A DNA stretch of 64,000 bases from Escherichia coli O157:H7 (lineage in GTDB: Bacteria; Pseudomonadota; Gammaproteobacteria; Enterobacterales; Enterobacteriaceae). Shown in pieces: positions 25,801 to 31,800 of the stretch (positions are counted from its first letter, which is position 1; each line of letters begins with the position of its first letter). The position numbers were made by a program. The stretch lies in assembly GCF_013167455.1 (NCBI RefSeq), contig NZ_CP038328.1; one strand, 5' to 3'.

Positions 25801-28800
25801 CGTCTGGCGCAGGTACAGAAGCTGCTGCCGGTGGAACTGGCGGCCAGTAAAGGCATTGAGCTGGTGTATGTGAATACCAAAGGGATGAGCGATCCTGTCC
25901 AGATGCTGCGGGCGCTGACAGGAGATGCCGGGTTCGATGACATTTTTGTTTATGCGGCGGTGTCTGCTGTCGTTGAGATGGCTGATGAATTACTGGCGGA
26001 AGATGGCTGTCTGAACTTCTTTGCCGGGCCGACGGATAAAAACTTCAAAGTGCCGTTTAATTTCTACAACGTTCATTACAACAGCACGCACGTCGTCGGT
26101 ACATCCGGCGGTTCAACGGACGACATGAAAGAGGCGATTGCCCTTAGCGCCACAGGGCAGTTACAGCCCTCGTTTATGGTGACCCATATCGGTGGCCTGG
26201 ATGCGGTGCCAGAAACCGTGCTCAATCTGCCGGATATCCCTGGCGGTAAAAAACTCATTTATAACGGCGTGACCATGCCGCTCACTGCCATTGCCGATTT
26301 TGCCGAAAAAGGCAAAACCGATCCGCTGTTTAAAGAGTTGGCGCGGCTGGTTGAGGAAACGCACGGCATCTGGAATGAACAGGCCGAGAAATATCTGCTG
26401 GCACAATTTGGCGTTGATATCGGGGAGGCCGCGCAATGATGTCCCTGGCGTGGCCATTATTTCGCGTTACGGAACAGGCAGCGTTGGCTGCCTGGCCGCA
26501 AACCGGATGTGGCGACAAAAATAAAATTGATGGCCTGGCGGTCACCGCGATGCGCCAGGCATTAAACGACGTCGCTTTTCGTGGACGAGTGGTTATCGGC
26601 GAAGGAGAAATTGACCATGCGCCGATGCTGTGGATTGGCGAAGAGGTGGGCAAAGGCGATGGGCCAGAAGTCGATATCGCGGTTGATCCCATTGAAGGCA
26701 CGCGGATGGTGGCGATGGGGCAGAGCAATGCGCTGGCGGTCATGGCTTTCGCCCCTCGAGATAGCCTGTTACATGCGCCCGATATGTATATGAAAAAGCT
26801 GGTTGTTAATCGACTGGCTGCCGGGGCGATTGATCTGTCTTTGCCTCTGGCGGACAACTTGCGTGACGTGGCGCGGGCGTTAGGTAAACCGCTGGACAAG
26901 CTGCGCATGGTTACGCTGGATAAACCGCGTCTGAGTGCCGCGATTGAAGAAGCAACACAGCTGGGCGTGAAGGTTTTTGCCCTGCCGGATGGCGATGTCG
27001 CCGCCAGCGTGCTGACCTGCTGGCAGGATAATCCTTACGATGTGATGTACACCATCGGCGGTGCGCCGGAAGGCGTGATTTCTGCCTGTGCCGTTAAAGC
27101 ATTAGGCGGGAATATGCAGGCCGAGCTGATTGACTTTTGTCAGGCCAAAGGGGATTACACGGAAAATCGGCAGATTGCAGAGCAGGAGCGCAAGCGTTGC
27201 AAGGCAATGGGTGTTGACGTTAACCGTGTGTACTCGCTCGATGTACTGGTAAGGGGGAACGATATCCTCTTTAGCGCTACGGGCGTCACGGGCGGCGAGT
27301 TGGTGAACGGTATCCAACAGACGGCGAATGGAGTGCGGACGCAGACATTACTGATCGGCGGCGCGGACCAAACGTGTAATATAATAGACTCCCTGTATTG
27401 ATGGTGATCTATCGGAAGACCAATGGCGACGCTGTCAGAAGATGATGTGCTTGAGCAACTGGATGCACAGGACAATTTATTTTCATTTATGAAAACTGCG
27501 CATTCTATTTTGCTCCAGGGGATACGCCAGTTTCTGCCGTCGCTGTTTGTCGATAACGATGAAGAGAGCGTCGAATATGCAGTGAAGCCGTTACTCGCCC
27601 AAAGCGGCCCGCTTGACGATATTGATGTTGCACTGCGTTTGATTTATGCGCTGGGGAAAATGGATAAATGGCTGTACGCCGATATCACGCATTTTTCCCA
27701 GTACTGGCATTACCTGAAAGAACAGGATGAAACGCTCGGATTTGCCGATGACATGACTTGGGATTTTATCAGCAACGTCAATAGCATAACCTGCAATGCG
27801 ACGCTCTATGACGCGTTGAAAGCGATGAAGTTCGCCGATTTCGCCGTCTGGTCAGAGGCGCGTTTTAGCGGAATGGTCAAAACGGCGCTGACGCTGGCAG
27901 TAACGACCACCTTAAAGGAATTAACGCCGTGAAAATTGAATTAACGGTGAATGGGCTGAACGTGCAAGCGCAGTACCATGATGAAGAGATAGAACGCGTG
28001 CATAAACCGTTGCTGCGTATGCTGGCGGCCTTACAGACGGTAAATCCGCAGCGCCGAACCGTGGTTTTTCTTTGCGCTCCGCCGGGGACGGGTAAATCTA
28101 CCCTAACCACCTTCTGGGCATATCTCGCGCAACAAGACCCGGAGCTGCCCGCTATTCAGACGCTCCCGATGGATGGTTTTCACCATTACAATAGCTGGCT
28201 GGATGCGCATCAATTGCGCCCCTTCAAAGGCGCACCAGAGACATTTGACGTTGCGAAACTGGCGGAAAATCTGCGCCAGGTCGTGGAAGGGGATTGTACG
28301 TGGCCGCAGTACGATCGACAAAAGCATGATCCTGTTGAAGATGCGTTGCACGTTACCGCACCAATAATCATCGTCGAAGGAAACTGGCTATTGCTGGATG
28401 ACGATAACTGGCGCCAGCTAGCGCAATTTTGTGATTTCTCGATCTTTATCAATGCGCCAGCTACTGCGTTGCGGGAACGACTGGTGGGGCGCAAGCTGGC
28501 GGGAGGGTTATCGCTGGCAGACGCAGAAGCTTTTTATGACCGTACCGACGGGCCGAATGTTCGCCGGGTGCTGGAAGAGAGTCTGCCTGCAAATTTGACC
28601 TTAATGATGACCGCTACGGGTGAATATCGTCTGGTGGATTAATGTTCCTGATTAGACCATCTTCCAGTCGCACCACACGAGAGAAATGACGCCGGGTAAA
28701 TGCGGCGTCATGACTGATTGCTACGACGCTCGTGCCTCGCTGGCGGCACTTCTCCAGCCAGCTTTCAAACACGCTCAACCAATTTTCGTCAAAATCCCGA

Positions 28801-31800
28801 CTCGGCTCGTCCAGCAGCAATAGTGGCGGAGAGAGTGCTTCCAGGCAGGCGACGGCGACCATCCGTCGCTGCGCACTATGCAGATCCAACGGGTGCGCGC
28901 TGGCAGTGTCTGCTAACTGACAACATTGCAGGGCAGCATGGGTACGTTGAGTGATTTCATCCGCCGGGCATTTTTGCAGTTTCAAACCAAATGCGATCTC
29001 GTCAGCGACGGTGCTGTGAAAAAGTTGGTTTTCCGCTTCCTGAAACAGTACGCCAATCTTTGCCGCGCGCTGGCGGTTTTTCAGGTTTTTCATCGCCTGT
29101 TGTTGCAGCATAACCGTACCGGCTGTGGGCGTAAGAAGACCTGCCATTACTCGTAACAGCGTCGATTTCCCTGCGCCATTGTCGCCGGTCAACGCCAACC
29201 ATTCACCTTGTTTGAGTTGCAGAGAAATGTCGCAAAGACAATCCGTTGCCGCGCCAGGCCAGCGATAAGATATCTGATTTAACGTTAACATAGTGGCTGG
29301 AGCGCTCCGTTTTGCAATTGCCACGCTTGCTGGCAGTAGTTCAGGAAAGGTGTGCGATGACGTTCAAAAAGAATAATCAGCGAACCACGTTCAAACGCCC
29401 AGTGTTGTAAGCGCTGCAACAGCATTTCGCTGGCCTGCGGCGTCAGGCGGCTAAAGGCTTCATCAAGAATTAATAGCTTTGGCTGCATCGCGATGGCGCA
29501 GGCGATGACCACGCGCTGTGTCTCTCCACCGGAGAGTGTTGCCGGGTGACGATGGCGCAACGGCTGGCACTCGGTCAGAGTCAGGGCGGCATCAATCCGC
29601 GCCATAATCTCTGCTTCAGCAAGACACAGATTTTCTGGCCCAAAGGCAACTTCTTCTTCCACGCTAAAGGTACAGCCGGAGAGCTGCAAATAGGGCGATT
29701 GCTGGACGAGCTGGATGGTGGCGGATTGTTCATTAAGCGGGAGATGCCCAATGGGCGTACCGAGGAGCGTCCCCGTGCCTGTTATCTCTCCTGGCAGAAA
29801 GTCCGGATACCAGCCCGCCATCAGCTGTGCCAGCGTACTTTTGCCACTGCCGTTGTCACCAAAGATGGCGACCATCCCCGGTTTGACATAGTGAAAGTCA
29901 TAACAGAACGGAGGATGCGTTGAGTGTGTCGGGCAATAACGGAACTGTTCTAACGTAACCATATCCACGCTCCGAATTCTGTCAGCATCAGCAAGATCAT
30001 GGTGTAACGCGCTACGCGTTGTAGGGTGCTATCGGCTGGTGCCCACAACGTTGTTCGTCGGTTGTGGATCCGAAATGCCCGCATATCCAGCGCCGCACCA
30101 CGGACAGCAAGATCGTTTAGCGCATTGTGTGTTAGCGGAATAGTTAACGCGGGCATCGCACGTAAACGCTGATACCAGCCCTCATCCAGCGGCACGCCGC
30201 GGGCACGCTGCGCTTCATGAATAATCGCTAATTGCCGTTTTAACTGCTCAACGACCAATAACGGCCCGGCAAACAGATAAGCGACGCCCGGCGGCAGGCG
30301 AGAAGCAAACAGAGCGCGGATAAAACATTGCACGGGGACGTACTGCATCCACAACTGTGAGGTTGAAACAATCGCCAGAATCCGCAACCAGAGCGTAATA
30401 GCATGCGTCCAACGCTCCGGCGAACGCGGCGTGCCGCTTAGCCATTCTGTTAGCCAGCCACCGTGTACCAGCCACAGCCCGGCTCCCAGCGAGAACATCA
30501 GCCAGACGACATATTTTGCCCGCCGCCGCGTGGCCTTTAGCGCAATAAGGCAAAAAAAGGTCGCCGCGCTATAGATCGGCAAAATGGTCTGCGCGGGCAG
30601 GATAAGCGTGGTGCAGGCCGCCAATGCCCATAGTGTTAATGAGGTAAATGGATGCATTTAGCGCACGGCAGCCATTGCCGGAAAATGGCGCGTGGTGCGA
30701 ATCGGCAGCTGGCGCAGTAAAAGCCAGACAATCACCGCTGTAAGAGTTTTATCGACCAGGTTCGCGCCTATCACCGTAATCGCCACCGACTCCACCAGGT
30801 TTTGCCCCATCGAGTGCATCCAGGCAACGAACAAATCGGCTCCGCTACCGGTGACACCGCCGAACAGCGCAGTACGCAGCGGTACAGCGACGACCGTTAC
30901 CGCAAGCGTAATAATCACGCCGCTGACAACGACTTTTGGCAGGGTGCGAAACCAACCCGCTCGCGCCAGCCAACCGGCGACCAGGCCGATGACCATCGCG
31001 ACGGGGGCAAAAGCGGCAGCGATCGGGTCGGTCAGTAATCCCCAGAGTAAATTGGTCAGTAAGCCGGTCAGCATCCCGATCACCGGACCAAGCAGTACCG
31101 CGCTAATAAGTGTGCCGATGGAGTCGAGAAATATAGGTAATTTGACCATGCTGGCCAGTTGCCCGCCGATCATATTGATGGCGATAGATATAACGATCAA
31201 CACCAGTGCCTGACTGGAAAAGTGGCTACGCGCCATAAGAAAACCTCTCTGAAAGTAGTTATTTAACGGGGGAAATATGCAACTCGTCGTAACCAGAAAG
31301 CGCGCAAGGTTGGCGGCTAAACGCCAGTTCCTCAAGGCTACCGATCACCAGTTCAAGCGTGGTCCGCACGGTACAGCCGGGCATCATATGACCGCCAAGC
31401 ATCGTGCCGTGTGGATCGGAAACGCAGAGATGAAGATGCTCACCACTCTGTTCCAACGTGCCGTTTAGTGAGATCACTTCGAATGTACCGTTCAGGAGCG
31501 TGGTGCCTTCTTGCCCGGCATAGCGCAAGGCGATGTCAGTCAGGCTACCGGTACAGCCTGCAATCCAGGCGGCATGAAGTTGCTGCTGCTGTGCAAAAGC
31601 GTGTAGCTGGGAAAAAACTTCCTGCCCGGGGAGGAGGCGCAGTGCGTAAAAGCGTGCGGAGGAAGAATATGGGTAGGGCAATGTCATCATTGGAGTACTC
31701 CGAAACTCGGACGTATTACGGATAATATCGACGCTGCATCAGTCATATTCTGATATAAGTCAGGGTTTGTGACGGCACAACGAAAAGATTTTGCTACGCT

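Follow-up and report, generated by a model that had tools for sequence, protein, structure and literature searches.

O-island 119 of Escherichia coli O157:H7 as a predicted PPC-linked ECF importer with a candidate nucleoside-type substrate

In a 64,000-nt stretch of Escherichia coli O157:H7 DNA (RefSeq assembly GCF_013167455.1, contig NZ_CP038328.1; hereafter the window), five closely spaced genes occupy the minus strand between yggC and epd (Table 1). In order of transcription they encode a PPC (DUF296) protein, named LmiA, followed by the S component, the T component and two ABC ATPases, A and A', of an energy-coupling factor (ECF) transporter. The PPC and S genes are separated by a spacer of 22 nt, S and T abut, T and A overlap by 13 nt and A and A' by 7 nt, while the 3' end of A' shares a convergent overlap of 29 nt (28614-28642) with the 3' end of yggC. 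A previous reading of this DNA made without database searches (the sequence-only reading) had proposed five packed genes between yggC and epd whose junctions overlap or abut except for the gap after the PPC gene, and had regarded them as one tightly coupled operon. The open reading frame (ORF) coordinates bear out both the gene order and the junctions, the RefSeq annotation of an identical O157:H7 genome contains the same five genes (PPC domain-containing DNA-binding protein, S, T and two ABC ATP-binding proteins), and the operon proposal is supported. Over 28400-31950 the window matches O157:H7 chromosomes at 100% identity.

Table 1 Features in and around the five-gene block, in window coordinates
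Feature	Position	Strand	Description
PPC gene lmiA (z4267)	31259-31690	minus	143 aa; first gene of the operon; DUF296
S component gene z4268	30658-31236	minus	192 aa; ~6 hydrophobic segments (hydrophobicity scan); PF12822; ECF_S_CD3073
T component gene z4269 (EcfT/CbiQ-type)	29950-30657	minus	235 aa; weak PF02361; coupling motifs
ABC ATPase A gene z4270	29285-29962	minus	NCBIfam ECF_ATPase_1, 9e-35; motif survey in 41 loci
ABC ATPase A' gene z4271	28614-29291	minus	NCBIfam ECF_ATPase_2, 1e-43; motif survey in 41 loci
yggC	27929-28642	plus	Flanking gene, convergent with A'
epd	32062-33081	plus	Flanking gene, divergent from lmiA
Segment differing between O157-type and K-12-type	28364-31892		Operon, ~280 nt of the yggC 3' end and ~75 nt upstream of lmiA
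Published lmiA promoter P1	31780-31817	minus	-35 TTGCAG (31817-31812); -10 TAGCAAAAT (31796-31788); sequences of PMC7667037 located in the window
P1 transcription start site	31780 (T)	minus	90 nt upstream of the ATG; PMC7667037
Published PhoP DNase I footprint CTTACGTCACGTTTTCAGC	31844-31862	minus	Exact single match, 0 expected by chance
Predicted proximal promoter P2	31715-31763	minus	CTGAyTTATATCAG box 31763-31750; -10 TATTAT 31727-31722; predicted start site ~31715
5' untranslated region hairpin UCCGA-GUU-UCGGA	31699-31711	minus	From alignment; holds the lmiA Shine-Dalgarno GGAG

The block is O-island 119 (z4267-z4271) of enterohaemorrhagic E. coli (EHEC) O157:H7 EDL933, as established by the 100% identical genome, the exact PhoP footprint, the promoter hexamers and the His numbering. 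The island was reported to span 3.12 kb with five genes, z4267-z4271, the first of which encodes LmiA, a DUF296 protein and activator of ler with a 17-bp binding site in the LEE1 promoter (Liu et al., mBio 2020, PMC7667037). In the same study, PhoP was found to activate lmiA in low Mg2+, and His85, His87 and His101 of LmiA were proposed to form a zinc site (PMC7667037). LmiA was later shown to bind the gadA and gadBC promoters and to activate gadA/gadBC (Gut Microbes 2024, PMC11657066). Our block agrees with these reports in locus, length (~3.1 kb), PhoP footprint, promoter and His85/87/101; however, the papers call z4268 and z4269 hypothetical and the island horizontally acquired, and they make no mention of an ECF transporter, of a cross-phylum PPC-ECF linkage or of an acetolactate-decarboxylase-like fold. 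In Salmonella, a 2024 paper states in its passage on a five-gene ECF operon that the operon was "suggested to import Co2+", after a 2018 thesis on STM3071, and reports it as activated anaerobically and grouped with nickel uptake genes (PMC11481890); a sigma-54 chromatin immunoprecipitation (ChIP) site has been placed within STM3072 (PMC3844500).

Literature searches pairing DUF296 with an ECF transporter, and nucleoside hydrolase with an ECF S component, found no paper. The idea that the operon had not been described therefore fails, since O-island 119, a role for LmiA and the Salmonella ECF operon are all published, while the recognition of the PPC protein as a fixed, unusual partner stands. 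Likewise, a role for LmiA is in print and K-12 lacks the genes, and the literature found demonstrates no substrate, Co2+ being suggested, in line with the earlier statement that none was assigned. Thus, the operon and a role for its first gene are already on record; not met with in the literature searched are the cross-phylum unit, the salvage context, the predicted fold of LmiA, the predicted degenerate ATP site and the indication that the K-12 arrangement is derived.

Profile searches agree with the families that the sequence-only reading had assigned (PPC/DUF296, ECF S, ECF T and two ABC ATPases), with T as the weak match. S matches ECF_trnsprt PF12822 (8e-8), and its best NCBIfam model is ECF_S_CD3073 (CD3073 family putative ECF S component), which it matches at 135 bits, short of the cut-off of 180; 1952 S homologues were collected at E ≤ 1e-3 among 50%-identity representatives. 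T matches CbiQ PF02361 at 5.7e-4 and contains the coupling motifs AQxARG (A149, Q150, A152-R153-G154) and VRG (V185-R186-G187), with R153 and G154 fully conserved (100%) and R186 nearly so (96%) among 47 homologues. A and A' match ECF ATPase models at 1e-35 to 1e-43, under the curated cut-offs. We found no ORF for an extracytoplasmic binding protein in 28614-31690. With S, T and two ATPases encoded side by side, the block is predicted to encode a dedicated (group I) ECF importer driven by ATP, in which S would capture the substrate and T would couple S to the A/A' heterodimer.

The two ATPases are predicted to be functionally asymmetric. In 41 loci, A keeps the Walker A, Q-loop, LSGGE/Q signature and Walker B motifs and has lost the H-loop His (FERN, FERH or AEHK), and A' has intact Walker A, Walker B and H-loop (ISHD) motifs with a degenerate signature (LHAGQRR, LHSAQRR or LTPTWRK); in O157:H7 the signatures are LSGGE in A and LHSAQRR in A'. 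Because A has lost its H-loop His and A' its signature, a head-to-tail dimer of the two would contain one consensus and one degenerate ATP site. The canonical site would be built from the Walker A, Walker B and H-loop of A' together with the LSGGE of A, while the second site would bind ATP and probably not hydrolyse it, leaving one hydrolytic site per cycle. EcfA and EcfA' of ECF importers are known with two canonical ATP sites. Heterodimeric ABC transporters with a single degenerate ATP site include TM287/288, TAP1/2 and CFTR, in which a degenerate signature in one subunit and the loss of the H-loop His in the other likewise leave one consensus site. These are type IV exporters or channels, whereas the asymmetric pair of O157 would power an ECF importer.

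To place the operon among its relatives, an alignment of distant S homologues was scanned against one genome per species, which gave 80 loci that were mapped by tblastn. In 69 of the 80 loci a PPC gene immediately precedes S on the same strand, and 72 have one somewhere in the locus. The PPC-S loci belong to four phyla, Pseudomonadota, Desulfobacterota, Synergistota and Chloroflexota, and the taxa include Enterobacterales, Aeromonas, Wohlfahrtiimonas, Laribacter, Rhizobium, Brucella, Kaistia, Aminobacter, Paracoccus, Desulfobulbaceae, Synergistaceae and Anaerolineae; within Enterobacterales, Proteus, Providencia, Morganella and Hafnia carry the genes outside the epd site. One orphan S gene was also seen (P0141). 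Clustering of the flanking ORFs of the 80 loci yielded no further conserved gene around S beyond the five. The shared gene order indicates that PPC-S-T-A-A' is an ancient unit held together in four phyla, and a unit so distributed is not explicable by a role in EHEC virulence.

Several departures from the standard arrangement were noticed among the homologues. S-T fusions occur (P0155, P0164, P0172), and in one locus (L074) T, A and A' are fused in a single 844-aa ORF. S-like domains are fused to the N-termini of histidine kinases in three proteins (P0211, P0218, P0230), suggesting that an S-type membrane domain may double as a ligand sensor. In five loci (L049, L052, L053, L069, L073), from Chloroflexota and a betaproteobacterial metagenome-assembled genome, a 116-aa gene upstream of PPC matches the C-terminal DsrE-like half of YedF, a protein of selenium metabolism (TIGR03527, 108.7 bits, cut-off 110), pointing to a possible sulfur- or selenium-modified substrate in these groups.

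The genes beside S in distant homologues, 41-49% identical to the E. coli S, bear on the substrate class. IUNH-family hydrolase genes (IUNH) precede S in L065/L067 and L086 (IUNH-S), in L078 (ribokinase-IUNH-IUNH-S-T-A-A', where an opposite-strand PPC gene lies downstream), in L082 (LacI-ribokinase-IUNH-S) and in L091/L092 (LacI/PfkB-IUNH x3-S-T-A-A'-MFS). Other loci have PNP-A-A'-S-T (L090), Tgt-S (L074) or a Qng1-like gene (PF10343) followed by Tgt-S-T-A (L080), and in Anaerolineae a gene for a YhhQ-type queuosine precursor transporter (QPTR) is divergent from PPC-IUNH-S-T-A-A' (L075/L081). A neighbour-joining tree of the S proteins, calculated without support values, places E. coli in a PPC-linked clade whose sister clade is linked to the salvage genes, and the IUNH-linked S genes of Kaistia nest within the PPC-linked clade. 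The S proteins of the sister clade found beside Tgt, Qng1-like, QPTR or IUNH genes share 41-45% identity with that of E. coli. Since the S genes of the sister clade sit in queuosine and nucleoside salvage operons, the substrate is most likely a nucleoside or 7-deazapurine, for example queuosine or queuine, or another modified nucleoside.

A described system for comparison is ECF-QrtT of Clostridioides difficile. QrtT, an S component of PF12822, imports preQ1, queuine and queuosine, and its gene lies in the order queK-qrtT-queL (CD1682-84), with queK encoding an IUNH-family hydrolase (PMC11477304, PMC11130926). We infer that the E. coli S belongs to the CD3073/QrtT-like branch of PF12822. The two systems are both ECF importers by prediction or report and share a Pfam family, and the operons of the sister clade put IUNH, Tgt, Qng1 or QPTR beside S. 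QrtT makes use of a preQ1 riboswitch and of the EcfAA'T module common to group II systems. The E. coli operon, by contrast, encodes a T, A and A' of its own (group I), has PPC in first place and lacks a riboswitch, QueK and QueL; an Rfam scan of 28000-32500 found no riboswitch or leader RNA at E ≤ 1, a preQ1 riboswitch included.

Further neighbours were noted. In L074 (3543-6972), a TtuA-like tRNA 2-thiolation gene and a Tgt gene with a 200-aa N-terminal extension lie directly upstream of S. The YedF-like gene of the five loci above and a weak thiouracil-desulfurase-like neighbour leave other modified nucleosides as candidates.

The same genomic context speaks to the proposal that the operon imports cobalt or another transition metal, with the His3 site of the PPC protein as a metal sensor or chaperone, as put forward for Salmonella STM3071-3075. 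The operon resembles CbiMNQO and NikMNQO in being a dedicated operon found in Gram-negatives with a CbiQ-family T and CbiO-like ATPases; the historical CbiO/CbiQ-type annotation, the matches of T to CbiQ and of the ATPases to cbiO models, the title of the 2018 thesis together with the statement made after it in the Salmonella paper, the invariant His triad of the PPC proteins and the grouping with nickel uptake genes among anaerobically activated Salmonella genes all favour this view. However, CbiQ and CbiO are generic energising parts of ECF transporters and do not set the substrate. CbiM/NikM and CbiN/NikN, by which cobalt and nickel systems are defined, are absent: the block gave no match to CbiM or CbiN, S matches PF12822 and the CD3073 family alone, and no extra small membrane ORF is present. 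In addition, S is of a different, vitamin- or nucleoside-type family with no conserved His, Cys or Met cluster, the ATPases are two distinct genes forming an asymmetric pair, the Rfam scan of 28000-32500 revealed no cobalamin riboswitch, the surroundings of the operon in the 80 loci contain no recurrent cobalamin or metal genes, and the relatives group with nucleoside and queuosine genes. A cobalt transporter was rejected as the leading idea because CbiM/CbiN and any metal or B12 context are missing, and we consider metal import quite improbable.

The first gene product, LmiA, matches the Pfam family PCC (PF03479) at 4e-28 and belongs to PPC/DUF296 by both profile and fold. Its Salmonella orthologue is represented by the crystal structures 2HX0 and 2NMU (E = 7e-75), and the AlphaFold2 model of the PPC protein has a pLDDT of 95.6. 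The nearest structures outside DUF296 are zinc enzymes. The site of α-acetolactate decarboxylase (ALDC) comprises Zn, H-x-H-(10)-H, two Glu, Arg and Thr. LmiA shares with ALDC and human PTD012 a common fold, the metal triad (H85-x-H87...H101) and conserved Glu, Arg and Thr; this is the AF0104/ALDC/PTD012-like fold of SCOP. In 46 ECF-linked PPC proteins, H85, H87, H101, E71, E113, E136, R18, R56, R126, T110, T111 and several glycines are invariant. Unlike ALDC, which has two domains and ~235 aa, LmiA is a single domain of 143 aa with no detectable sequence similarity to it, and a PDB profile search with the PPC protein yields DUF296 entries only. The model indicates that LmiA most likely adopts an acetolactate-decarboxylase-like fold with a predicted Zn-His3 site.

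The family name comes with a different association. Plant AHL proteins bind DNA via AT-hooks, use the PPC domain for trimerisation and lack the His triad. LmiA shares PF03479 and the FE..SL.G core motif with the plant AHL PPC domain, whereas the AT-hook core RGRP does not occur in its 143-aa sequence and the His triad is invariant. A full-text search on bacterial DUF296 returned mostly plant AHL papers and false matches to DUF2961/GH172. Given the invariant His triad with Glu, Arg and Thr, the lack of an AT-hook and the ALDC-like fold, the most economical reading of the conserved residues is a metal-dependent ligand-binding or catalytic site.

First genes of transport operons commonly encode autoregulators, and LmiA might mainly be a transcription factor: a local, ligand-responsive regulator of the ECF transporter that uses the His3 site as a sensor of a metal or of the transported compound and was recruited to ler and gad in EHEC. 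The experimental record supports this, with electrophoretic mobility shift assays (EMSA), DNase footprinting, ChIP-qPCR and a reporter for LEE1 (PMC7667037) and EMSA and ChIP for gadA and gadBC (PMC11657066). Moreover, lmiA alone complements both lmiA and OI-119 deletions while single deletions of z4268-z4271 leave adherence unchanged (PMC7667037), RNA-seq of the lmiA mutant shows 145 genes up and 24 down, 169 in all (PMC11657066), and the five-gene unit holds no other conserved regulator. On the other hand, the PPC fold has no known DNA-binding motif and the 'DNA-binding' label derives from plant AHLs, which have the AT-hook that LmiA lacks. The ECF-linked PPC proteins are acidic (median pI 5.6 among the 46), and their nearest non-DUF296 structures are the zinc enzymes described above. 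The LEE1 footprints used 2.5-5 µM LmiA (PMC7667037), and the protein was expressed from pET32a in the 2024 study (PMC11657066). The tight PPC-S spacing suggests that LmiA is produced in step with the membrane complex. Autoregulation through the published 17-bp motif TTAAAGTCGTTTGTTAA was rejected as well, since the motif occurs nowhere in the window, the promoter of lmiA itself included, at ≤3 mismatches. A mainly regulatory LmiA is an alternative that we think somewhat unlikely.

The distribution of the block within E. coli and beyond gives a view of its origin. The sequence-only reading had taken the block to be absent from K-12, and this is so: yggC and epd adjoin in MG1655. Of 5426 complete E. 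coli genomes, 3318 (61%) carry the block at ≥80% coverage, and nearly all the others (39%, K-12-type) have just a short match of 90-95% at the epd side, which points to a single K-12-like haplotype without the operon. Outside the species, the block adjoins epd (and yggC where found) in E. albertii, Citrobacter, Klebsiella, Kluyvera, Atlantibacter, Superficieibacter, Phytobacter and others, and in the partly captured Salmonella locus it adjoins yggC. At the block we found no tRNA, no boundary or flanking repeats and no integrase, insertion sequence or other mobility ORF, and its GC content (0.52-0.58) shows no compositional step from that of the flanks (0.48-0.56).

The ends of the segment that differs between the haplotypes are informative. 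On the epd side, pairwise alignment shows K-12 and O157 to be essentially identical rightwards from ~31892 and ~80% identical over 31816-31889, where K-12 holds a degenerate copy of the PhoP footprint (5/19 mismatches); the same alignment shows no remnant of the -10 element, the transcription start site or lmiA in K-12. On the other side, identity within yggC is ~99% as far as 28363 and falls to ~70% between 28364 and the stop codon. The C-terminus of O157 YggC is 90% identical to that of E. albertii and 65-78% to those of Citrobacter and Salmonella, while that of K-12 is 58-72% identical to all of these, being as far from O157 as Citrobacter is. The drop at 28364 thus looks like an old recombination breakpoint marking the operon-less haplotype. 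The kept but degenerate stretch upstream of lmiA and the aberrant yggC 3' end indicate that K-12 lost the block or had it replaced, its haplotype being a divergent replacement, and that the operon-bearing haplotype is vertically inherited and ancestral at the epd-yggC site in Enterobacteriaceae. The earlier description of the block as an accessory insertion is overturned by the synteny in other genera, the lack of tRNA, repeats, integrase and GC anomaly and the aberrant end of K-12 yggC. The related view of a horizontally acquired, pathogen-specific virulence island was based on the occurrence of O-island 119 mostly in pathogenic strains, put down to horizontal transfer (PMC7667037), and K-12 indeed lacks the block. 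However, the block is carried by 61% of complete E. coli genomes, it is syntenic in many non-pathogenic Enterobacteriaceae with no mobility genes, tRNA or repeats, and the departure from the outgroups is seen in the flank of K-12 and not in that of O157; we regard such an island as highly improbable.

Upstream of lmiA, the published promoter P1 and the PhoP footprint were both located (Table 1). The footprint overlaps a TGAY-N4-RTCA palindrome (TGAC-N4-GTCA; CRP/FNR-family-like, TcTGA-N6-TCACg) that is kept in 14 genera, and the quoted 'PhoP box' agrees with the consensus at only ~8/12 positions. In Enterobacteriaceae loci, the palindrome lies ~176 nt upstream of the start codon and ~103 nt upstream of a second box, CTGAyTTATATCAG; a footprint-like site was also found at ~4010-4030 of L002. 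Since a version of the site at 31844-31862 survives in K-12 despite the loss of lmiA there, it may also serve the divergent epd promoter. The CTGAyTTATATCAG box is invariant in 14 aligned Enterobacteriaceae intergenic regions (14 genera) and stands at a conserved position in most Enterobacteriaceae loci with upstream sequence. It has an FNR/CRP-family core (TGAT-N4-ATCA) centred 41.5 nt upstream of the predicted start site of P2, with the conserved -10 TATTAT in between, which is the class II FNR geometry. An FNR-type P2 would give anaerobic expression, in keeping with the anaerobic activation seen in Salmonella. Between P2 and lmiA, the hairpin in the 5' untranslated region has a stability of -5 to -6.5 kcal/mol in most species and is compensated in Superficieibacter (CCGGG...CCCGG); it is too short to be a preQ1 aptamer, and that idea was dropped. 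Two other palindromes were noticed here. The perfect 16-bp palindrome GTGGAATTTATTCCAC at 31819-31834 abuts the -35 element of P1, and other genera keep its right half (TTATTCC) only. The invariant palindrome CTGAAACGCTTCAGC at 31926-31941, in the spacer common to epd and lmiA, resembles a Cra (FruR) operator for epd-pgk-fbaA; Cra presumably regulates epd.

On the far side of the operon, yggP, yggF (annotated glpX, class II fructose-bisphosphatase), yggD (fumE) and yggC form an overlapping plus-strand run of their own (25162-28642), which terminates within the last gene of the ECF operon. YggC is a nucleoside/nucleotide kinase-family protein (NCBIfam NF006742, 519 bits), and its gene adjoins those of a predicted nucleoside-type importer. 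This may be coincidence, since yggC is unlinked to the operon in many genera.

Taken together, we read O-island 119 as an ancient lmiA(PPC)-ecfS-ecfT-ecfA-ecfA' operon that would encode a group I ECF importer of a nucleoside-type substrate together with a cytoplasmic zinc-site protein, a joint reading to which we give an even chance. LmiA, made from the same transcript, would most likely bind or chemically convert the imported compound in the cytoplasm, and its published DNA binding may be an additional function or one co-opted later in Escherichia. The enrichment of nucleotide transport and metabolism, among other categories, in the up-regulated set of the lmiA mutant (PMC11657066) counts as support. 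Several points weigh against this importer reading. The substrate class comes from relatives only 41-49% identical in S, the S tree has no support values and the S score falls under the NCBIfam CD3073 cut-off. The E. coli operon is without Tgt, QueK and QueL, and the Rfam scan of 28000-32500 found no preQ1 riboswitch there. LmiA may act independently of the transporter, given its specific DNA binding in two papers (EMSA, footprint, ChIP-qPCR; PMC7667037, PMC11657066) and the unchanged adherence after deletion of z4268-z4271 (PMC7667037). Finally, cobalt transport was proposed in the 2018 thesis, as cited in PMC11481890. A narrower version of the importer reading, in which OI-119 is a salvage module for queuosine or queuine (or another modified nucleoside) and LmiA a new Zn-dependent salvage enzyme on the ALDC fold, is unlikely as it stands. 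Under it, LmiA would take the place in the operon of QueL or QueK, as suggested by comparing QPTR / PPC-IUNH-S-T-A-A' of Anaerolineae with queK-qrtT-queL.

To our knowledge, K-12 has no ECF transporter and such transporters are rare in Proteobacteria; K-12 is for that reason used as a clean host for work on ECF transporters and queuosine salvage. The predicted ECF transporter described here is carried by 61% of complete E. coli genomes and by many other Enterobacterales, including Salmonella. If it imports queuosine-type nucleosides, conclusions on salvage drawn from K-12 would not be valid for most E. coli or for gut pathogens, and if the salvage version is true, only for K-12-type strains would it still be right to say, as textbooks do, that E. 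coli is unable to salvage q or Q, while LmiA would exert its reported influence on LEE, gad and biofilm genes indirectly or as a moonlighting protein. The conserved degenerate ATP site predicted for this ECF module offers a natural test case for the number of ATPs needed per ECF cycle. More broadly, a published virulence regulator appears to belong to an ancient transporter-linked family with a zinc-enzyme fold, and the virulence phenotypes of LmiA may for that reason reflect metabolism or a late co-option.

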